Shown here: positions 1,278 through 42,335 of the stretch, one piece after another
Layout of the letters: every line of letters begins with the position of its first letter
Position numbering within the stretch: position 1 is the first letter of the stretch
DNA from: an uncultured Gammaproteobacteria bacterium
GTDB lineage: Bacteria; Patescibacteriota; Microgenomatia; Levybacterales; UBA12049
DNA length: 64,000 nt
NCBI GenBank assembly: GCA_964497535.1
Contig: CAZCCG010000001.1
Span: forward strand, 130,688-194,687
Direction of reading: 5' to 3'
Notes under the pieces: model-generated
Seen by the model: the letters and a program-made list of their open reading frames with translations, nothing else
Told to the model about the DNA's origin: nothing
The model's database searches: none
Translations under genes and position numbers: made by a program

Positions 1278-2633
1278 CTACTTATTCCCATTTAATACAC
1301 TGGTTATCCCCAGGATATCCTCAGTTACCCGAGCTTTACTGTCAAGTAATCTCTCCATCTTTTCCACACCATGCATAACAGTGGTATGATCTCGTCCCCC
1401 GAGTAAATTTCCTATTTCTACCAATGTTATGCCAAGCTCTGTTTTGAGTAAATACATGGTGACTTGGCGGGCTCGAACAATTGAGGCGTCGCGTTTGGGG
1501 CCTTTCAGTTGTGTTGGTTTTACACTATAGAAAGAACAGACTGCTTGGATAATATCTTCTGCATGCACTGTATGGGGTCGTTCCTCCTCTATTCCCCCCA
1601 GTGCTCGTTTTGCAAGTTCAATAGTAATATCAGATCCGGTTGTAGACGCCTGGGTAATTACTCGAAGAAGGAGTCCTTCAAGGCTCCGCGTATCCTGCGC
1701 CATTGTTGCAATTACTTTGGCAATCTCAATTGGCAGGTCAATATTGAATTTCTTTGCTTTAATGAGTAAAATGGCAGATTTCAATTCAAAATCGGGTCGT
1801 TCTATATCGACAGTAAGCCCGCCGGCAAAGCGGGAAGAAAGCCGTTTCTCCAGTTTTTTTATTTCATGAGGAGGACGGTCTGATGACAAACAAATCTGAG
1901 ATCCCTGGTCGATAAGAATATTAAATGTATGAAAGAGTTCTTCCTGAACGCGTTCTTTGCCTTCAATAAATTGTATGTCGTCAATGATCAGAAGAAATGC
2001 GGACCGAAATCTTCTTTTCATTCGCGCAGTATCGTTACTGCGAATTGCCTCTACAACTTCATTGGTAAATTCTTCAGACGTAATGTAGATAATTTTTTTA
2101 TCCGGTTGCCGTTGATATACATCATTGGCAATTGCATGCATCAAATGCGTTTTCCCAACTCCTACCGGGCCATAAATAAAGAGTGGATTGTAAGAAGTCC
2201 CGATATTTTTGGCAACGGTTTGACTGCTTACGTAAGCGAGTTGATTGCTTGAAGACACCGCAAAGTTTTGAAATGTAAAATCTGGACGTACTCGAGGGAG
2301 ATGTCCCACGCTTAATGGTTGAGGAGCGGGTGTGGTTTCAAATAAAGGACCTTTGTCTTCTTGTTGTAGCTGTTTGGTTGTGAGTCGGGGAACAAAAATA
2401 AGTAAGACTTCTGTATTGGTGAGTAATTTTAGTTGTCCCTTAATCAGTGCTGCAAACTTTGTCTGTAAGACATTGATAACCATTGAAGACGGTGCAGCAA
2501 TCGTTGCGGAATTGTTTTCAAACGCAAGAAGCTCAGTGTTTTTTAATAAGGTCACAAAATGGGCTCGTGAAACCTCTTTTTCAAGCTCTTTGAGTACTTG
2601 TGACCAAAGATTATGTAACTGTGTAGTATCCAT
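1278..2633 (-). CDS. dnaA: chromosomal replication initiator DnaA
   Basis: Walker A GPVGVGKTHL, Walker B LLIIDDIQF, and a C-terminal DnaA-box-binding helix-turn-helix (TMYLLKTELGITLVEIGNLLGGRDHTTVMHGVEKM). The longest ORF starts at 2708, but a perfect DnaA box lies 8 bp upstream of that codon. The internal ATG at 2633 gives the typical MDTTQLHNLWSQVLKEL N-terminus, so I prefer the 2633 start. Confidence 0.9.
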   Translation of the reverse strand: MDTTQLHNLWSQVLKELEKEVSRAHFVTLLKNTELLAFENNSATIAAPSSMVINVLQTKFAALIKGQLKLLTNTEVLLIFVPRLTTKQLQQEDKGPLFETTPAPQPLSVGHLPRVRPDFTFQNFAVSSSNQLAYVSSQTVAKNIGTSYNPLFIYGPVGVGKTHLMHAIANDVYQRQPDKKIIYITSEEFTNEVVEAIRSNDTARMKRRFRSAFLLIIDDIQFIEGKERVQEELFHTFNILIDQGSQICLSSDRPPHEIKKLEKRLSSRFAGGLTVDIERPDFELKSAILLIKAKKFNIDLPIEIAKVIATMAQDTRSLEGLLLRVITQASTTGSDITIELAKRALGGIEEERPHTVHAEDIIQAVCSFYSVKPTQLKGPKRDASIVRARQVTMYLLKTELGITLVEIGNLLGGRDHTTVMHGVEKMERLLDSKARVTEDILGITSVLNGNK

Positions 2634-2715
2634 AGTTGAAGCGGAGGATACTTCCCTACTCGTCTGGAGATACGTGGTTGGAAGGCAAACCTTGGCTCGG
2701 ATTTCCATTTAATAA

Positions 2716-18167: not shown

Positions 18168-18281
18168 AACAACTATTCTAAAAGACTTCGTATTGTTGTG
18201 CTTGACGCTTAGGAAACACGGTTCTGACAAAGGGCTGACAACAACCGCATATTGATAACGGGTGGGCAAAACCAGTACAAT

Positions 18282-19616
18282 ATGATGCACCATACTATGG
18301 AAACAGTTAATCTTGAAGCGGAATACCCAATAACATTCCACGAAAAAGAAGCCAGAGAGCTGGGACAGCATCTCAAAAGTCACCACTCAGTAGTTCTGAT
18401 TGGGATGAAGCGCGTAGGAATCAGTAACTTTCTGCGGTTTTTCCTCTATCATAAAGATATTGCCACAACCTACATCGGAGATGGTAAAAAACATCTTTTT
18501 ATTCATGTTGATCTTAATAATCTCGTAGAACGGGAGATACCGGCCTTCTGGACATTGACACTCAAACGGATTGTAGATTCGATTGAAAACACGGATATCC
18601 CGGGTAATATCAAAGATGACATTGAGTCGCTCTTTATGGATAGTATCCAGTCCCAGGATCTGTTTATCACTATTGATAGTGTACGTAAAAGCCTGATGAT
18701 GCTCGTTGAACAAAATATCGAGCCTACCCTCTTTTTTGTTCTTTTTGACCGTATGCAAGATGCTATTACGGTAGAGTTCTTCGCAAATTTACAAGGAATA
18801 CAAGATGCGGTTCATGATCGATTGTCGTATGTATTCACCAGTTTTCGAAGCCTGGATGTTGTTTCTCCGCAAGTATTTACTCGTCCTTCCTTGGTTGTAT
18901 TTTCGCATGATTCATATATCCGACCTGCCAAAAGGGCAGATGTTGAAATTGTTTTTGAAACGCTGCGGCAACAGTATGATTTGGCTGTTTCAGATGAATT
19001 GAGAGAATGGATTTTTGAGCTAGTGGATGGATACATGCGATATTTACATCTGGCGCTAATCCATCTGAATGAGAAAAAGCCGACAGATTTCAAGACAAAA
19101 GAAGAGTTATTCAAGAGCCTTTTGGAAGATGAACGGATTTATTTCCAGTCGGAAGAGCTGTGGGAGAGTTTGAGCCCACAAGAACAAGAAGTGCTGGTAC
19201 AGATTGAGAAAAAGCAGAAAGTTTCAGAAGAGAAAAAAAAGCAGGCAAAATATGTATGGGATACAGGATTTATCTTTGATGGGAAAGGAAAGTGGAATAT
19301 CTTTAGCCCTTTATTTGAGCATTATGTGTCAGAAAAGGTATCAGGACAAAAAAGTGAGGGTATAGTAGCAGGAACCGTTGAATTTACCAAGAAAGAGCAT
19401 TTACTCTTTGATTATCTCAAGAAAAATATCAATGACGTATGCGAGCGGGAGAAAATTATCGAAGCAGTCTGGCCGGAAGTTGAGGCATTGGGGGTTTCAG
19501 ATTGGGCAGTTGATCGACTCGTTGCGCGGGTGAGAAACAAGATGAAAGAGCAGCAAAGCAAGTACGAGATACAAACTATCAAAACCCGGGGGTACAAGCT
19601 CGTTTCTACCGAGTAA
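18282..19616 (+). CDS. transcriptional regulator: N-terminal degenerate P-loop NTPase-like domain plus C-terminal OmpR/PhoB-type winged-helix DNA-binding domain
   Basis: The C-terminal EREKIIEAVWPEVEALGVSDWAVDRLVARVRNKMKE...IQTIKTRGYKLVS is a classic trans_reg_C wHTH. The N-terminus has a Walker-A-like VVLIGMKRVGISNF (Lys replaced by Ile) and Walker-B-like hydrophobic-DE/DR stretches. The ORF-track start at 18252 is a TTG; the first ATG is at 18282. Confidence 0.55.
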   Translation: MMHHTMETVNLEAEYPITFHEKEARELGQHLKSHHSVVLIGMKRVGISNFLRFFLYHKDIATTYIGDGKKHLFIHVDLNNLVEREIPAFWTLTLKRIVDSIENTDIPGNIKDDIESLFMDSIQSQDLFITIDSVRKSLMMLVEQNIEPTLFFVLFDRMQDAITVEFFANLQGIQDAVHDRLSYVFTSFRSLDVVSPQVFTRPSLVVFSHDSYIRPAKRADVEIVFETLRQQYDLAVSDELREWIFELVDGYMRYLHLALIHLNEKKPTDFKTKEELFKSLLEDERIYFQSEELWESLSPQEQEVLVQIEKKQKVSEEKKKQAKYVWDTGFIFDGKGKWNIFSPLFEHYVSEKVSGQKSEGIVAGTVEFTKKEHLLFDYLKKNINDVCEREKIIEAVWPEVEALGVSDWAVDRLVARVRNKMKEQQSKYEIQTIKTRGYKLVSTE

Positions 19617-19659
19617 ATCCTCCACTAACTAGTCATTTTAGCCTCAAAACTCTAAAAAT

Positions 19660-19714
19660 TCGTGAATTATTCGGGAATTGCATTCGGAAATAATTCGGGA
19701 AATTCTCGGGAATT
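19660..19714 (+). promoter_or_regulatory. array of five direct repeats T(T)CG(G/T)GAA(A/T)T at 10-14 bp spacing (candidate operator)
   Basis: Copies begin at 19660 (TCGTGAATT), 19671 (TCGGGAATT), 19685 (TCGGAAATA), 19695 (TCGGGAAAT) and 19706 (TCGGGAATT), i.e. helical-turn periodicity, immediately upstream of promoter P1. Confidence 0.5.
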
Positions 19715-19739
19715 GTAGGCATGAACCTATCCTATAGTC

Positions 19740-19768
19740 TTGACTTGTGGCTACGTTTTTGCTATACT
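19740..19768 (+). promoter_or_regulatory. sigma70-type promoter P1 (TTGACT, 17 bp, TATACT)
   Basis: TTGACT at 19740-19745, a 17-nt spacer, TATACT at 19763-19768, embedded in the conserved context CCTATAGTCTTGACT...GCTATACTTT. Confidence 0.55.
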
Positions 19769-19918
19769 TTTCAGTAGTAAATTTCCCCCCATAAGCGCAT
19801 TTTTTGCTTCTGTGGGATAATTTATTTGGACTTTGAAATAATCAGAATCTTATGGATGCCTTTGTGGGTATATGGATACCTACGGAGGTGTTCATAAGTA
19901 ATAGGAGGGGAGAAGTGC

Positions 19919-20155
19919 ATGAGTCAGATGCAGATGGGATATGTCCCTCCGGATGAAGGTTCCTCGAAAGCCGTCTGCGGATCGTGTTGTACAATTCAGA
20001 ACACGTACTCCGACTACTGCGGAGTAAGCTGGATTAAACAGCATCGTTTGCAAGATGGTTCCTTCTGTCCCGGAGGCAGTAAGTTTCCTAATCTCAACGT
20101 AAGTCTTGTGGGTTTGCTCGTTTCCAAGAGGCTGGAAGGAGAGAGTCATGAGTAG
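19919..20155 (+). CDS. small Cys-rich protein (78 aa), first gene of GC-rich cassette 1
   Basis: Strong RBS AGGAGG 8 nt upstream of the ATG. Sequence MSQMQMGYVPPDEGSSKAVCGSCCTIQNTYSDYCGVSWIKQHRLQDGSFCPGG... has 5 Cys. Its stop overlaps the next ATG (ATGAGTAG), suggesting translational coupling. Confidence 0.4.
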   Translation: MSQMQMGYVPPDEGSSKAVCGSCCTIQNTYSDYCGVSWIKQHRLQDGSFCPGGSKFPNLNVSLVGLLVSKRLEGESHE

Positions 20156-20534
20156 GATACAGCCTGAGATGTCGCAACAGGAGATCGCAGAATTCTGCCG
20201 GGAATGGCAGGCTCACCTTGCTCTCCTGGAGGGCAAGGTCAACCCGGAGTATCTGCTCATCGCGCGTTGCGCGGTAACGCCGGAGAATTTCGGCCGCGAG
20301 CAGGGGCAGCTGAGCCCCATTCGGGAGAATTCTCCCTTCGATCTGTATTTTCTCCTCGTTCCGGCACCGGGGGTGCCGGATGCCTTGCTCATCTGCAGAT
20401 TGCAGGCCGAGCAGGTGCAGGAGGCTCTTGACCAGGAGGATCCTAGCCGCGTGGAGATCGATATCTCCACGGTCGAAGGACGCCTCTTCAAACTCCAGCT
20501 CGAGTTGCTGGAGTTGGGCTATCCGCCCAGGTAG
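20148..20534 (+). CDS. hypothetical acidic protein (129 aa) in very GC-rich DNA, second gene of cassette 1
   Basis: RBS AAGGAGAG 5 nt upstream of the ATG at 20148. MSRIQPEMSQQEIAEFCREWQAHLALLEGKVNPEYLLIARCAVTPENFGREQ... Codon usage (CTG/GCC/GGC/CGC) is unlike the neighbours. The GC-richness also produces long stop-free ORFs in other frames. Confidence 0.45.
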   Translation: MSRIQPEMSQQEIAEFCREWQAHLALLEGKVNPEYLLIARCAVTPENFGREQGQLSPIRENSPFDLYFLLVPAPGVPDALLICRLQAEQVQEALDQEDPSRVEIDISTVEGRLFKLQLELLELGYPPR

Positions 20535-20542
20535 TTTCTCAC

Positions 20543-20576
20543 GCCGCCTTTCCCATCTGGGGGAGGCGGCTTTTTA
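20543..20576 (+). terminator. rho-independent terminator of cassette 1
   Basis: GCCGCCTTTCCC-ATCT-GGGGGAGGCGGC stem-loop followed by TTTTTA. Confidence 0.55.
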
Positions 20577-20590
20577 TGGGAATGAGTCTT

Positions 20591-20621
20591 TCGGGAATAA
20601 ATCGGGAAATCCTCGGGAATT
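20591..20621 (+). promoter_or_regulatory. second array of three TCGGGAA(A/T)T direct repeats at 11-bp spacing (plus a degenerate fourth upstream)
   Basis: Copies begin at 20591, 20602 and 20613. Same motif and spacing as the 19660-19714 array, upstream of promoter P2. Confidence 0.5.
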
Positions 20622-20650
20622 ATATCGTCACAGCACTTTACCCTATAGTA

Positions 20651-20679
20651 TTGCACTTGAGGATAAGATCTGCTATACT
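20651..20679 (+). promoter_or_regulatory. sigma70-type promoter P2 (TTGCAC, 17 bp, TATACT)
   Basis: CCTATAGTATTGCAC...17 nt...GCTATACTTTC, paralogous to P1. Confidence 0.5.
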
Positions 20680-20720
20680 TTCTACGCTAGCCACATTCGC
20701 ATCAATGAAAGGACATATCT

Positions 20721-20891
20721 ATGTCTACATGTGGTACCCCGGCAGACCTGGGATATTATTCCGCCTTGATTAAGGACAAGCAGGAAAAATTGGCGATAAC
20801 AGCTTATCCGCAGGTCAAGCAATGTCTTGACTCTCAATGCCCGAGGTGTACGTGGCTCTTTACCCAGTTGCAGCAGCCAATTAGCTCGTAG
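20721..20891 (+). CDS. small Cys-containing peptide (56 aa), cassette 2
   Basis: MSTCGTPADLGYYSALIKDKQEKLAITAYPQVKQCLDSQCPRCTWLFTQLQQPISS with an AAAGGA RBS about 8 nt upstream. Not in the ORF track because it is under 60 aa. GC-elevated and followed by a hairpin. Confidence 0.3.
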   Translation: MSTCGTPADLGYYSALIKDKQEKLAITAYPQVKQCLDSQCPRCTWLFTQLQQPISS

Positions 20892-20896
20892 CATCC

Positions 20897-20940
20897 TAGC
20901 CGCTTATCCCTTTGGGATAGGCGGCTCATTTACTTTTATA
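20897..20940 (+). terminator. putative terminator hairpin of cassette 2
   Basis: TAGCCGCTTATCCC-TTTG-GGATAGGCGGCT stem-loop (similar in sequence to the cassette 1 terminator) followed by the T-rich stretch TTTACTTTTA. Confidence 0.4.
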
Positions 20941-25505: not shown

Positions 25506-25616
25506 AATTAACTGTACTATATAGTATAGCATTTAAAAATGCAACTGTCAAACTATGGGCTTACACATCTGTATGTCATTCCCGCATAAGCGGGAATCCA
25601 GTGTTATAATCGTCTC

Positions 25617-27957: not shown

Positions 27958-28040
27958 ATTTAATCCCCTCTGTCATTGCGAGGAATGAAATGACGAAGCA
28001 ATCTCACGTCATCCTGAGCTTGTCGAAAGATCTAATTTTC

Positions 28041-28076
28041 AAAGAAAAACCCCTCGCAGCCGAAGCCTTGAGGGGC
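28041..28076 (-). terminator. rho-independent terminator for the minus-strand gene 28086-28847
   Basis: On the minus strand: GCCCCTCAAGG-CTTCGG-CTGCGAGGGG followed by TTTTTCTTT. Confidence 0.5.
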
Positions 28077-28085
28077 GTATGTATA

Positions 28086-28847
28086 CTAGGAGTACTGTTT
28101 CGCCGTCTTGATTTCCTCTAGGCAGAAGGGGCACTCGAGAACATGTCGTCGTACCTCTTCGGAGGCTTTGTTCCAGAAAACCAACATAAGCAGTTCATCT
28201 CGTTCCGGACACAGTTGGTTCGTTTCCTGTAGATGGTTGAATCGGTGACTAGTCGCATGCCGGAACACACGTTCACACTCGACACATGCCAACAATTCTT
28301 CCAGCAAGAACTTGGTCTTGATCCTCTCAAGAGGAAAGATCGAGCCTCTTGAGGTCAACCGGATGAAGTCGAGTGGTACTTGGTAGGCTGCGCGTATTGC
28401 CAGCTTACTATGGGGACATGTCGACTCAATGGCCGGCAAGATCCTCTCATCGATTTCCTCAATCGTTTGAGGAGAGAGCGTTGGGGAGGGAGGTCGTCCC
28501 GGAATGATCAGACGAAGAGTGAACTGAGAGGCTCCTGCCACCCTTTTCCTGAATTGAGCTCTTCTGTGGCTGTGTCCAATGGCTTTCCTGCAGAAAGGAC
28601 TTTCTTCTCCCAGTCGGTAGAGCAGAATCTTTACCATTGTTCCTAAATGCCCAAAGGATGTCATCTCGACAGTGCTTACCGGATGGATCTCCACGTATGC
28701 CGAGAAGTAATTCTCAGTGCCACTGGATGCCAGGCGAGTCATTACAAATTCATTGCTGTCCTCGTATGTTTGGCCGACATCGTACGTCTTGCCTTCCAGT
28801 AGCGGTCGAGCAGCCTCGCAGACCTCGTTCCACGTAAGCGCGACCAT
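28086..28847 (-). CDS. hypothetical Cys/His-rich protein (C-terminal zinc-ribbon-like CxxC...CPFC) in GC-rich DNA
   Basis: 253 aa, visibly GC-rich relative to the neighbours. Upstream on the minus strand there is TTGACA-16nt-TATACT with the same GCTATACTT -10 context as cassettes 1 and 2. C-terminus reads LACVECERVFRHATSHRFNHLQETNQLCPERDELL...HVLECPFCLEE. Confidence 0.45.
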   Translation of the reverse strand: MVALTWNEVCEAARPLLEGKTYDVGQTYEDSNEFVMTRLASSGTENYFSAYVEIHPVSTVEMTSFGHLGTMVKILLYRLGEESPFCRKAIGHSHRRAQFRKRVAGASQFTLRLIIPGRPPSPTLSPQTIEEIDERILPAIESTCPHSKLAIRAAYQVPLDFIRLTSRGSIFPLERIKTKFLLEELLACVECERVFRHATSHRFNHLQETNQLCPERDELLMLVFWNKASEEVRRHVLECPFCLEEIKTAKQYS

Positions 28848-29033
28848 GGGTTGCTCCTTTCAATGTGCTAGGATTTGTCCTGACTGAGAAGTATAGCCTA
28901 TAATATTCATGTGTCAATAGTATTGCCATTAATATTATGATTAAATACCCCTAATAGCCTTAAAAATGGGTTTGTTGACAAAATAATAGGGAGCTATTAC
29001 AATATGAAGTGACGATAAATTCGTCATCAATTT

Positions 29034-29774
29034 ATGCCTGATTTTATTGCATCAGATGCCCTGCAAGCTCTTCATTTAACCCCACGAGAACAATCTATTT
29101 ATCTTTCAGCGTTAGAATTGGGGGAATCACTACAAGTACCTTTGGCACAAAAAGCCAAAGTCAAACGGACTACACTTCGGGAACTGATGCCGGATTTGTT
29201 AGCCCGAGGTATCCTCCAGCAAAAAGTAGTAGGGAAGCGTAAATTTGTCATAGCCCGCGATCCTCGCGAGTTGATTGCAGAGCTTGAAGAAAAGACCAAA
29301 CGGGCGCAAGAGGCTTTACCACAATTGTTGGCCTTGCAAAATAGTATGGCTAACAAACCTGAAGTACGATTTTATGAAGGTATTGAGGGGTTAAAGCAAA
29401 TCTATCAACTGACGCTGGATGTTGGTTTAACAATGTATTGTTTTGTAAATGCTGAATATATGTATCCGGAGTTTCGTAAATGGGTTGCCAACTACTATTT
29501 AAAAGAAAAGCTGAGGAGAAAGATTTGGATTTATAATATTATGACAGCAGGGGAGGAGACCAAGTCTTTGATGCCCGAGCATGGGTATCGGGAAAATAAA
29601 TATATATCAAAAGACCAATACCCATTCCAAATGGAGATTGTGACATTTGGTGATTATGTTACCTTTCATCATTTCCGTCAAAATGAACCACCGTCTGCGA
29701 TTCTGATCAAAAGTAAAGCAGCGGCCCAGACCATGCTCTCCATCCACAAACTCATCTGGAACTTTCTCAAGTGA
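29034..29774 (+). CDS. TrmB-like transcriptional regulator (N-terminal wHTH)
   Basis: N-terminal LSALELGESLQVPLAQKAKVKRTTLRELMPDLLARGIL...VVGKRKFVIARDP resembles the TrmB-family HTH. Lies upstream of the ABC transporter operon and is preceded by TTGACA-17-TACAAT and a TGACGA-N5-TCGTCA palindrome. Confidence 0.45.
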   Translation: MPDFIASDALQALHLTPREQSIYLSALELGESLQVPLAQKAKVKRTTLRELMPDLLARGILQQKVVGKRKFVIARDPRELIAELEEKTKRAQEALPQLLALQNSMANKPEVRFYEGIEGLKQIYQLTLDVGLTMYCFVNAEYMYPEFRKWVANYYLKEKLRRKIWIYNIMTAGEETKSLMPEHGYRENKYISKDQYPFQMEIVTFGDYVTFHHFRQNEPPSAILIKSKAAAQTMLSIHKLIWNFLK

Positions 29775-34377: not shown

Positions 34378-35067
34378 TTAGCGTAGTTGCGGTAAAATCA
34401 TTACTTGTGATTTGGTAACACCTTGTTTGAATTTTGCTTCGGTAGCCGCTGCTTTGTCTCCCAGTAACCGTTTGTAATGCATCGGGATAGTCACTTGTGC
34501 TGCAATGGTATTTGCCGCCTCAATTGCTTCGTCAACATCCATGGTATAAGTTCCCCCAATAGGTAGCATTGCCACATCCAGATGCAAATTAGTGAGTGAT
34601 TTCATCTCAGGAATAAAATCAGTATCTCCCGCATGGTACATTTGTTTGCCATTGAGGTCAAAAATATATCCCACCCAATTATTTGCTTGTGGGTGAGCTT
34701 GCAGACGCTCTGGATTGATATTATAGGCAGGTACTGTCTGGAAAGAAAATTTTTCAATGATATAACTTTGAAGTGGAGTGACTTCTTGTTTTTGACCGGG
34801 ACTTAGAGAGAGACGATCCAGACAATCTTTGGGTGCTACCACAATCGAGGTATCTTTAAGAAGAATCTTAATATCAGGAAGTGATAGATGGTCAGGGTGT
34901 GCATGGGTGATAAAAAGAATATCTGCTTTTTCCAAATCCGTCTGGTGCAAATCAAACGGATCGACATAATAGATTCGTTGATTAGATTTTGTATCTATAA
35001 ACGAAAAACTTGCATGTCCCAACCAGGAAATATTTGGTAAAGAATCCATACTCCTATTATATACCAA
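34378..35067 (-). CDS. MBL-fold metallo-hydrolase
   Basis: HxHxDH motif ITHAHPDH plus downstream His/Asp ligands. Confidence 0.65.
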   Translation of the reverse strand: MVYNRSMDSLPNISWLGHASFSFIDTKSNQRIYYVDPFDLHQTDLEKADILFITHAHPDHLSLPDIKILLKDTSIVVAPKDCLDRLSLSPGQKQEVTPLQSYIIEKFSFQTVPAYNINPERLQAHPQANNWVGYIFDLNGKQMYHAGDTDFIPEMKSLTNLHLDVAMLPIGGTYTMDVDEAIEAANTIAAQVTIPMHYKRLLGDKAAATEAKFKQGVTKSQVMILPQLR

Positions 35068-35171
35068 GATAGTCTAATGTATGCGAATGAATAAATACAG
35101 AAAGCGAGGAGGATTCCGAAGGGAATAATTCGAATTAATTCGCAGTATTTAAATTAGTAGAAATTCGCATA

Positions 35172-37547
35172 TTAGAGGCCGAGGTGGAAGATTGTTTCAA
35201 AGAAGGGAATTACATTAATTGCTACTTGTGTCACAACTGCCGCCAGTACGCACAGCACTAGCATTTTATTAAAGCTAAAGATCATATTTCCGCGTACCAC
35301 AAATGCCACAAGCAGGCGCAGTCCTACCAGGAGATTAAAGATAAGCGTTCGGGAGGCCAAAGGGGTATGTACCTGTAATAATAATTGAAAAGTAACAAAA
35401 AGAGATCCTGCTAACAGTACTCCTAAAAATGTTATAAAAATGAGCCTTTCACGAGTGAGTATCGGTGAGTTTTGGGTTCTGGGTTGATGTCGCAACATGC
35501 TGGGGTCTTTTGTATCTGCTGCAAGTGCCAATGCAGGAAGGCCGTCTGCAATGAGATTGATCCAGAGGATATCAGTCGGCAGAAGTGGAGAAGGAAGACC
35601 AAACAGAGCAGTTGAAAAAATAAAAAGAATTTGTGCCAAATTACCCGAGAGCAGATAGGTAATTGATTTCAAAATATTGTTATAGATATTGCGTCCTTCT
35701 TCAATTGCTCCAACCAGGGTTGCGAAATTGTCATCCAAAAGGATTATATCTGCTGCCTCTTTGGCTACGTCAGTTCCTGATTGTCCCATGGCAATTCCCA
35801 CATCTGCGCGTTTGAGAGCCAGGCTGTCATTAACTCCGTCACCGGTTACTCCCACTACATATCCGTTTCTTTTGAATGCCTCAACCAGTCGTAATTTATC
35901 TTCAGGTTCTGATCTGGCAAAAATATTGATTTTTCCAATGATCTGGTCAAGCTGCGAATCGGTAAGTTTTTTCAGCTGATCACCGGTGAGGACATCTTCA
36001 TCTTTCTCAACCAATCCGACTTCTTTGGCAATGGTGAGTGCTGTTAGTTCATTATCTCCGGTTACCATTACGGTATGAATACCGGCTCGTCGTGCTTGCT
36101 CGACGGCTTGGTGTGCAGCTTCACGTGGAGGATCATAAATACCAACGATCCCGGTGAAGTGAAGGTGACTTTCAGCATGTTTGCGGTCGGGTATTCCATC
36201 ATGATCCTCAACTTTGTATCCAAATCCGATCACCCGCAAGCCTTCTTTTGCAAAAATATCAACCTGGGTAAGTATTTTTTCTTTCTCAGTTTCCGACTGT
36301 GTACTGCTTGCAAGAATTGCTTCCGGAGCTCCGCGAACAAATACATGAGTTTTTCCATCATGCTTCAAAACAGCTGAAATTGTTTGAGTTTGTGGATCAA
36401 ACGCATATTCTTCAAGCGGTTTTGACAATCCGTCCCATATCGTTGTACGTTTTCTTTGAGCTGTTGCCCACAAAAGCAGTGCTCCGTCTGTTTTATCACC
36501 CACCACATCCCATTCATCTTTGGGGGAATGTGATCCCTCCTTTTCTACAATCGTTGCGGTATTGGCAACCATACAGGCGGGGAGGATATATTTCATCTCT
36601 TCCGGCTTTTTTGTCCACCATTTTTTAACTTTCATATTATTTTGTGTTAATGTACCGGTTTTATCTACTAAAATGACCTGGACAGATCCTAATGTTTCAA
36701 TAGCAGGCATTTTACGAACAATTGCATTTCTTTTGGCCATGCGGTTGGTTCCAATTGCCAAAGCGATTGTGATAACTGCTGGCAACCCTTCAGGAATTGC
36801 GGCAATTGCGATGCTCACTGCCAGAAGGGTGAGGGGAAGTAATTGTTGTCCGTGCATAAGGCCAATGGGGATAATCAACAGCGCCCATCCGATTGCTGAG
36901 ATCGAAATGAATCTACTCAACGTATCAATCTTTTTCTGAAGCGGACTTTGATCCATCTCAAGAGTGGAAAGGGTATGTGCAATTGAACCAAGACGGGTTT
37001 GCATACCAATTTTCTCAACCAACATTTTCCCTTTGCCTTGCGTTACTAATGTCCCTTTCAGAACTGTATCATTGTGGTTTTTGGTGATGGGTAATGATTC
37101 TCCAGTCAAAAGCGATTCGTCAATCTCGATATGATGGTCTAAAATAAGCCTGCCATCAGCGGGAATACGATCCCCTTCTGATAACAGGACTACATCCTCT
37201 GGTACCAGTTCGTTGGTTGGGATCAGATGTTCTTTCCCGTCACGAAAGACTCGTGATATCGGTTTAACATATGATGATAATTTCTGTAGTGCCTTTTGCG
37301 CGCGGTATTCCTGAATAAATCCCAAAATTCCATTGAGAAGCAATATCAGCAGTATAAAAATGCCGTCAAAACGATCAGTAATAAAAAATGAAAGGAGACC
37401 TGCAGTAAAAAGGATAGCGTTAATTACGGTGGGAAATTGGGAAAGAAAGAGCAGTAGCGTTGTTTTTTGTTCAGAGGTGGTAATCTCATTTTTACCATAT
37501 TCCTCCCGACGTTTTGCAGCTTGTTGTGATGTTATTCCTTGCTCCAT
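35172..37547 (-). CDS. cation-transporting P-type ATPase (type II, Ca2+/Mg2+-like)
   Basis: Phosphorylation motif DKTGTLT, TGDN, hinge GDGVNDSLALKRADVGIAMG, 791 aa with about 10 TM segments. Confidence 0.85.
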   Translation of the reverse strand: MEQGITSQQAAKRREEYGKNEITTSEQKTTLLLFLSQFPTVINAILFTAGLLSFFITDRFDGIFILLILLLNGILGFIQEYRAQKALQKLSSYVKPISRVFRDGKEHLIPTNELVPEDVVLLSEGDRIPADGRLILDHHIEIDESLLTGESLPITKNHNDTVLKGTLVTQGKGKMLVEKIGMQTRLGSIAHTLSTLEMDQSPLQKKIDTLSRFISISAIGWALLIIPIGLMHGQQLLPLTLLAVSIAIAAIPEGLPAVITIALAIGTNRMAKRNAIVRKMPAIETLGSVQVILVDKTGTLTQNNMKVKKWWTKKPEEMKYILPACMVANTATIVEKEGSHSPKDEWDVVGDKTDGALLLWATAQRKRTTIWDGLSKPLEEYAFDPQTQTISAVLKHDGKTHVFVRGAPEAILASSTQSETEKEKILTQVDIFAKEGLRVIGFGYKVEDHDGIPDRKHAESHLHFTGIVGIYDPPREAAHQAVEQARRAGIHTVMVTGDNELTALTIAKEVGLVEKDEDVLTGDQLKKLTDSQLDQIIGKINIFARSEPEDKLRLVEAFKRNGYVVGVTGDGVNDSLALKRADVGIAMGQSGTDVAKEAADIILLDDNFATLVGAIEEGRNIYNNILKSITYLLSGNLAQILFIFSTALFGLPSPLLPTDILWINLIADGLPALALAADTKDPSMLRHQPRTQNSPILTRERLIFITFLGVLLAGSLFVTFQLLLQVHTPLASRTLIFNLLVGLRLLVAFVVRGNMIFSFNKMLVLCVLAAVVTQVAINVIPFFETIFHLGL

Positions 37548-42165: not shown

Positions 42166-42335
42166 ACTTTTGCACACTACATAGTGTTTTCCATAGAGAT
42201 TGTCATCCCGCACTTGATGCGGGATCCAGAGAATGAAAACTTATTATAACTGGATTCCTGGTCAAGTCCTTCAATAAGCTCAGGACAAATTTTACAGTGA
42301 GCGCAGCCGAACTGCAAGGAATGACAATTGTAAGG

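Follow-up and report, generated by a model that had tools for sequence, protein, structure and literature searches.

How did a GC-rich orphan gene come to lie between ruvC-ruvA-ruvB and a TrmB-like regulator gene in an AT-biased genome, and what might its product do? The question is raised by a 64,000-nucleotide stretch of contig CAZCCG010000001.1 (assembly GCA_964497535.1), here called the window, in which a minus-strand gene encoding the protein P0001 has the ruv genes on one side and, on the other, the divergently transcribed regulator gene followed by an ABC (ATP-binding cassette) transporter. The explanation we regard as the best as a whole, put forward tentatively and at slightly less than an even chance, is that the gene is foreign cargo in a variable slot beside the TrmB-like regulator of a soil member of the Saccharimonadales (Patescibacteria), and that it encodes a partner-binding protein resembling the zinc anti-sigma (ZAS) proteins. 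Coordinates of all features are collected in Table 1.

Composition, homologues and coding status

The P0001 gene has a GC content of 0.512 compared with 0.406 for the window, and its GC content at third codon positions (GC3) reaches 0.571, where 49 host genes average 0.345 (sd 0.041, maximum 0.435), corresponding to z=5.5. This is in line with an earlier interpretation of the locus made from the letters of the DNA (the sequence-only reading), in which a conspicuously GC-rich gene had been described at this place. The third codon position is the richest in GC, GC1 and GC2 lie somewhat above those of most host genes checked, and arginine outnumbers lysine in the protein (21 versus 10 residues), which also contains 8 cysteines and 9 histidines. 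The GC profile, a check proposed in the same reading, marks the gene as a sharp compositional outlier, with a drop at the ATG, from 0.54 to 0.33, and a second one just beyond the terminator; apart from this gene, only the open reading frames (ORFs) of two cassettes near 20 kb are outliers in GC3 among the window's convincing genes. The picture of a compositionally foreign cargo gene with a strong promoter and terminator of its own has therefore held up.

As judged from sequence, the P0001 family has two members worldwide in the libraries searched; in about 15 billion proteins, P0002 is the sole homologue of P0001. A word-indexed search of 5.8 billion proteins with P0001 as query returned only P0001 itself, and a two-sequence profile built from P0001 and its homologue P0002 retrieved nothing further from the same library. 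An exhaustive phmmer search of 1.84 billion representatives adds only P0002 (225 residues), which matches P0001 residues 5–196 at 29% identity (E=7.7e-8 library-wide), and P0003, which matches residues 192–245 (E=4.8e-4 library-wide, and about 1e-6 in pairwise comparison with two P0003 repeats). Neither P0001 nor P0002 matches Pfam, NCBIfam, PADLOC or PHROGs, for P0001 at E<=1 in the case of PADLOC, and PDB sequence searches with P0001, with profile A1 and with the C-terminal profile A3 gave nothing meaningful. Tblastn against plasmids gave no match; against phages it returned Brevibacterium phage protease genes on the opposite strand at E=0.03, which we judged spurious. Viral contigs scanned for the target family and the regulator family, and a genome-contig collection scanned with the regulator alone, likewise gave no match. 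These database searches confirm that the N-terminal part of P0001 has no recognisable relative, as had been stated from its sequence, and a housekeeping homologue of host-like composition was looked for and none was found.

We are nearly certain that the ORF is a real coding gene, because it has a conserved Shine-Dalgarno sequence and ATG, a homologue at E=7.7e-8, and differences in the conserved blocks that are synonymous only. Where P0001 and P0002 carry identical residues with degenerate codons, synonymous codons differ at 36 of 62 positions, which, read from the two sequences, is the signature of selection at the protein level. In the invariant N-terminal peptide AARPLLEGKT, 6 of 10 codons are synonymously different between the two genes; C10, just ahead of it, is identical in both proteins. 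By comparison, an artefact is extremely improbable, whether it be GC-rich reads of foreign origin wrongly assembled into the contig or an ORF arising by chance in GC-rich DNA that codes for no protein, for instance that of a structured RNA. RNA genes do often form GC-rich patches in AT-rich genomes, but the region of the gene gives no Rfam match at E<=1 and no tRNA in the scan, and the elevation of GC3 above the other codon positions, like the synonymous-substitution signature, points away from non-coding DNA. As regards a chimeric assembly, the independent Logan assemblies SRR9179560, SRR9179562 and SRR9179563 show 100% identity across the gene and the junction on the regulator side, and a homologous arrangement is found in two further independent assemblies. 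All three Logan contigs end at 27971–27977 and do not span the ruvB junction, which is a point in favor of a chimera.

Table 1 Features of the locus and of the two cassettes near 20 kb (window coordinates)
Feature	Position	Strand	Remarks
P0001 GC-rich orphan gene	28086..28847	-	Almost certainly protein-coding, 253 residues, ATG start
Invariant N-terminal peptide AARPLLEGKT (residues 12–21)	28785..28814	-	Ten consecutive identities between P0001 and P0002
Candidate metal site A, C144-P-H146 ... C188-x2-C191	28275..28418	-	All five residues invariant between P0001 and P0002
ZAS-like module (putative), residues 205–253 (C213, H235, C239, C242)	28089..28235	-	Matches repeats of anti-sigma factor P0003
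Sigma-70-type promoter TTGACA-16-TATACT	28890..28917	-	11 of 12 consensus positions matched
Shine-Dalgarno AGGAG	28854..28858	-	6 nt upstream of ATG, within 5'UTR block CACATTGAAAGGAG
Intrinsic terminator	28040..28076	-	Hairpin 28049–28076 and U-run 28040–28048
TrmB-like winged-helix regulator	29034..29774	+	246 residues, host-like GC; PF01978 E=0.0032, 17.7 bits, below the 25.6 cutoff
Regulator promoter TTGACA-17-TACAAT	28975..29003	+	Kept in the intergenic alignment
Palindrome TGACGATAAATTCGTCA, candidate operator	29010..29026	+	Between regulator -10 and ATG
REP-like palindromic element	27974..28030	.	ruvB-side boundary of the cargo, between ruvB stop and P0001 terminator
Cassette 1 (P1)	within 19640–20930		ORFs 19919–20155 (78 residues, Cys-rich) and 20148–20534 (128 residues, GC3 0.74); terminator 20543–20570
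Cassette 2 (P2)	within 19640–20930		ORF 20721–20891 (56 residues, C4...C35-x4-C40-x2-C43); terminator 20898–20926

The slot beside the TrmB-like regulator

The divergent regulator provides the fixed point against which the cargo can be compared between genomes. Its orthologues occur at 63–84% identity in four other assemblies. The genome is that of a member of the Saccharimonadales, the closest named record being Ca. Saccharimonadales SMAG_U15658. The two genes are separated by 186 bp with back-to-back promoters, and this entire intergenic region, including both promoters and the palindrome TGACGATAAATTCGTCA, can be aligned across the window and the related loci L087, L086 and L085, while the 5' untranslated region (5'UTR) of the cargo is alignable as far as the ribosome-binding site in the window, L087 and L086. 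The cargo promoter is kept at these four orthologous loci as TTGACA-N10-TAYAGGnTATAMT, and the 5'UTR block CACATTGAAAGGAG is kept in the window, L087 and L086 despite the different cargo in L086. The -35 element of the cargo promoter is flanked by TGACA/TGGCA repeats.

Behind this common control region, the content of the slot, as far as the compared sequences go, is variable. In L086, where the regulator is 81% identical and promoter and 5'UTR are retained, the slot holds three unrelated GC-rich genes (L086:2244-3801), encoding two paralogous XRE-type helix-turn-helix proteins (149 and 171 residues) and a 163-residue protein of no known kind, with GC contents of 0.52–0.57 and GC3 of 0.50–0.61. 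The P0002 gene is also divergent from a gene for a 246-residue protein, 63% identical to the window regulator, and has a GC3 of 0.549 versus 0.356 for this neighbour. GC-rich cargo is thus present at three of the four closest loci. Among more distant regulator orthologues (47–74% identity), some have divergent genes of host-like GC content, several of these being of radical-SAM (S-adenosylmethionine)/B12 type. One 74%-identical regulator, in L108 (L108:1-1963), has no divergent gene; it starts 6 nt after a gene for an AbiEii-like nucleotidyltransferase and is itself followed by a Phd/ParE toxin-antitoxin pair. Further on, L108 carries genes for an MBL-fold (metallo-beta-lactamase) protein and a P-type ATPase, which in the window lie at 34378–37547.

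The P0001 gene is probably cargo of this slot that was imported horizontally. The P0001/P0002 pair is 29% identical compared with 63% for their regulators; the cargos are thus far more diverged than the regulators, and yet the GC3 of both is high although their genomes are AT-biased. This is better explained by recent imports of the two, independent of each other, from a GC-richer pool of genes than by vertical descent. Vertical descent would mean a lineage-specific, fast-evolving gene whose GC content is kept up locally, whether through selection acting on the mRNA or the protein or because a recombination hotspot undergoes GC-biased gene conversion, and we consider it unlikely. It would account for the presence of the family at the same position by orthologous regulators in two genomes, for the near-equal GC3 of the two copies (0.57 and 0.55), and for the lack of a donor or outside homologue in very large databases. 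However, synonymous sites are heavily substituted between the copies, so that an AT-biased host would have ameliorated their GC3; GC1 and GC2 are raised as well, and arginine is preferred to lysine; and the closer relative L086 has wholly different GC-rich genes in the slot, which speaks for replacement rather than divergence. Neither an integrase nor a tRNA nor direct repeats were detected at the locus.

The strong promoter and the GC-stem/T-run terminator that had been read from the sequence are both present. The terminator hairpin is followed by UUUUUCUUU and has a predicted stability of -17.8 kcal/mol (z=-3.25), which was equalled in 0 of 200 shuffles. The gene had, in addition, been proposed to form one family with cassettes 1 and 2, with whose promoters (P1 at 19761 and P2 at 20672) it has a -10 context in common. 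This context is real, as the window contains GCTATACTT 4 times where 0.24 would be expected, but it does not serve as a mark of cassettes because rplY, the housekeeping gene for ribosomal protein L25, is likewise driven by GCTATACT with a TTGACA -35 element (25551..25523). In a four-way promoter alignment, everything that the P0001 promoter shares with P1 and P2 is common to rplY too, and the shared context is, from these alignments, a host strong-promoter consensus. Three TCGGGAAW repeats precede each of P1 and P2 and none is found at the P0001 promoter; the terminators are of one type with different sequences; and P0001 has no significant similarity to the proteins of either cassette. Because control regions, terminator sequences and proteins all differ, the three have compositional foreignness and a host-type strong promoter in common, not ancestry, and the single-family proposal is not supported. 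The N-terminus of P0001 (C..LLEGK) was also compared with the 128-residue cassette-1 protein, and a relationship was rejected for lack of significance; the 56-residue cassette-2 protein and the CPH..CxxC unit of P0001 were tried as further ZAS-like repeats and rejected, the alignments being at motif level only, with 1–5% probability. The tandem mini-cassettes themselves lie directly downstream of a gene for an AAA-like regulator with an OmpR-type winged helix (18252-19616), whose product is a plausible binder of the TCGGGAAW direct repeats.

As to the regulator itself, its orthologues carry PF01978 in their records, and a PDB profile search retrieves winged-helix proteins, among them AF2008 (E=0.0018) and, at just E=0.15, TrmB itself. 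The palindrome TGACGATAAATTCGTCA is, from its position and conservation, likely to be an autoregulatory operator of the TrmB-like gene: upstream of more distant TrmB-like orthologues, the form (G)TGACGATAAATTCGTCA(T) is complete in L109 and present as the half-site GTGACGATG in L110 and L114 (about 50% identity).

On the opposite side, the cargo is bounded by an element resembling repetitive extragenic palindromic (REP) sequences. It contains TGACG-N11-CGTCA, with related copies at about 42190–42320 and at L099:1343-1357, and its translations are of the VILSLSKD and FDKLRMT type, as in spurious ORFs of many genomes. The Logan contig breaks suggest repeat or strain variation at this boundary. 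The second TGACG...CGTCA palindrome (27991–28011) was considered as a cargo-flanking operator and set aside, being more likely a part of the REP-like element, of which a related copy lies at about 42.2 kb; the palindrome is unremarkable in its folding.

In the wider surroundings, the window starts with dnaA (1278–2708, minus strand), yidC and khpB. The cumulative GC skew climbs up to about 46 kb, some 44 kb from dnaA, and then declines, where gene orientation turns from mostly plus to mostly minus.

The C-terminal Cys/His module

The last 49 residues of P0001, 205–253, read ...C213PERDELLMLVFWNKASEEVRRH235VLEC239PFC242LEEIKTAKQYS, i.e., C-x21-H-x3-C-x2-C. This motif aligns column for column with the four repeats of P0003, a 665-residue protein with four tandem HxxxCxxC copies that is encoded directly after a gene for an ECF (extracytoplasmic function) sigma factor (L111:101-3075) and matches the RsrA anti-sigma model TIGR03988 at E=6.4e-9. 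Read by eye, the sequence of P0003 also contains a hydrophobic segment that is probably membrane-spanning. Four tandem ZAS repeats where one is usual make P0003 an unusual multi-ZAS architecture in its own right.

In ZAS domains, the residues of the HxxxCxxC motif coordinate zinc together with a distal His or Cys in helix 1 (PMC2877774); in the class I anti-sigma domain (ASDI), helices 1–3 form a bundle and a fourth helix binds sigma domain 2 (PMC7406223). C213, H235, C239 and C242 present just this combination of an HxxxCxxC motif and a distal ligand in helix 1. AF2 modeling from a five-sequence alignment predicts three helices, at positions 12–21, 26–34 and 36–48 of the module, with a predicted local distance difference test score (pLDDT) of 83.9, where H235 ends helix 2 and C239xxC242 starts helix 3. 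A Foldseek search of this model against the PDB gave nine non-significant matches, among which zinc-bound RsiW ranks first both by TM-score (TMq 0.53) and by the length of its gap-free alignment (45 of 49 columns; E=8.7), and hhalign places the RsiW and RsrA motifs in register with the module at a probability of only about 1%. On balance, the C-terminus appears to be a ZAS-like zinc module. We regard it as working like, and distantly related to, such a module, and do not class P0001 as an anti-sigma factor.

The same stretch had been taken in the sequence-only reading for a zinc ribbon or an HNH-like metal site. The Cys/His motif quoted there is present and probably metal-binding, but the two assignments do not agree with the present data. 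The C-terminal 72 residues gave no HNH match at E<=10 and the region is predicted to be all-helical, which led us to reject an HNH endonuclease; no ribbon model matched, and the stretch separating C188xxC191 from C239xxC242 is predicted to be helical, so that a zinc ribbon is rejected as well. Moreover, P0002 keeps C188xxC191 together with C144 and H146 and has no C239xxC242, so the two CxxC pairs do not make up one site. The first pair belongs to candidate metal site A, whose region is predicted to be helical with low confidence.

The gene had also been suggested to encode a nuclease or a protein of anti-phage defence that would carry an HNH-like or zinc-ribbon site and come from the same acquired-cargo family as the cassettes at 18–21 kb, which we now consider highly improbable. 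A Cys/His-rich C-terminus and a composition as foreign as that of the cassettes would suit it, and the L108 regulator, lying among AbiEii and Phd/ParE genes, indicates that such regions can hold defence or toxin-antitoxin genes. Against it stand the lack of any match in PADLOC, Pfam, NCBIfam and PHROGs, and of anything real in the phage and plasmid searches; the absence of HNH and ribbon matches for the isolated C-terminus, its predicted helical fold and the CxxC pairs that are not co-conserved; and the dissimilarity of the cassette proteins and of their upstream control regions.

Structure prediction, another check that had been proposed, was informative for the C-terminal module and not for the whole protein. 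The N-terminal half (approximately residues 1–135) comprises one helix and seven strands in the full-length model, which, at low confidence, suggests an alpha/beta fold; this half has no recognisable relatives. Inspection by eye, with no predictor run, reveals neither a signal peptide nor a hydrophobic segment in P0001.

Proposed function and relation to known systems

Taken together, the data lead us to the following proposal, in which the binding of zinc and of a partner, as well as control by the neighbour, are inferred. The cargo most likely arrived through horizontal exchange from a gene pool richer in GC, and would have come to lie behind a promoter and 5'UTR of the regulator side. P0001 would be a protein of two parts, an N-terminal half followed by a helical, Cys/His-rich C-terminal half with candidate metal sites A and B, site B being the terminal three-helix module with C213, H235, C239 and C242. 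This helical zinc module may hold a protein partner, either a sigma factor or another transcription regulator; loss of zinc or oxidation of thiols might free this partner, as happens with RsrA and RslA. Through the palindrome, the TrmB-like neighbour probably regulates its own promoter, and it may regulate the cargo promoter too. Such a partner-binding regulatory role for P0001, taken on its own, is possible but doubtful.

Several observations weigh against this proposal. The pattern of GC-rich cargo is seen at three loci only, and no donor lineage was found in the libraries of 5.8 billion and 1.84 billion proteins, in phages, in plasmids or in viral contigs. Neither the whole protein nor its isolated C-terminus matches Pfam zf-HC2 (PF13490) or an anti-sigma model directly, even at permissive E-values, and the hhalign probability (about 1%) and the Foldseek E-value (8.7) are poor. 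The module is C-terminal and has no fourth helix, as the protein ends 11 residues past C242, inside helix 3; the homologue P0002 is devoid of it; and no sigma gene lies beside the P0001 gene or among the window ORFs scanned, ten further ORFs included. The full-length AF2 model, with a pLDDT of 43, is unusable and was not employed for fold searches. The missing zf-HC2 and RsrA profile match carries little weight, because RsrA and RsiW, both genuine ZAS proteins, match each other at just E=0.046. Since direct profile, hhalign and Foldseek support is weak, it is the motif, the predicted topology and the transitive homology via P0003 that link P0001 to ZAS. The evidence base is thin, comprising three loci and one informative remote homologue.

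A bolder variant, to which we give only a very small chance, is that the TrmB-like regulator with its divergent promoter and 5'UTR forms a fixed expression platform, where foreign, GC-rich regulatory genes are swapped in near the start codon. These genes would perhaps be host-derived, Saccharimonadales being thought to be epibionts of high-GC Actinobacteria. If so, the locus would represent a new small gene-cassette exchange system in Patescibacteria with cargo of regulatory type, an anti-sigma-like zinc protein here and XRE-type proteins in L086, and the cargo could interfere with transcription in the host or in the cell itself, for example as an anti-sigma mimic. More generally, the context of the locus is of greater interest than the protein, as the same regulator, promoter and 5'UTR have unrelated, apparently foreign genes behind them; if the slot pattern generalises, it would offer ultra-small host-dependent bacteria a compact route for sampling foreign regulatory genes.

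Of the known systems, the ZAS or class I anti-sigma proteins (RsrA, RslA, ChrR, RsiW; PF13490; TIGR03988) are closest to P0001 at the protein level. Shared properties are the HxxxCxxC motif with a Cys about 21 residues upstream, a predicted three-helix bundle in which the His ends helix 2 and the CxxC opens helix 3, the lack of a signal peptide or membrane segment apparent by eye, and significant similarity of the module to repeats of the ECF-linked P0003. P0001 differs in that the module is C-terminal rather than N-terminal and is fused to an N-terminal domain of about 135 residues and a second CPH...CxxC cluster, in the ligand spacing (x21 versus x24–26 in ZAS), and in having no fourth helix, no adjacent sigma gene and no direct match to a family model. 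A three-helix module at the C-terminus with no sigma partner nearby would be new for anti-sigma-type zinc modules.

At the level of the locus, two further comparisons apply. Like divergent regulator-target pairs of the TrmB/MarR type, it has back-to-back promoters, a palindrome overlapping the regulator 5'UTR and an architecture kept across orthologues; unlike in those pairs, the target is not conserved, and one promoter with its 5'UTR drives unrelated, seemingly foreign genes in close relatives. With genomic islets and integration hotspots that contain ORFans (orphan ORFs), the locus shares a sharp compositional break, a content that varies between close relatives, and orphan proteins, however, the unit here is a single gene, and one of its boundaries coincides with the start codon or adjoins it, behind a conserved promoter on the host side.

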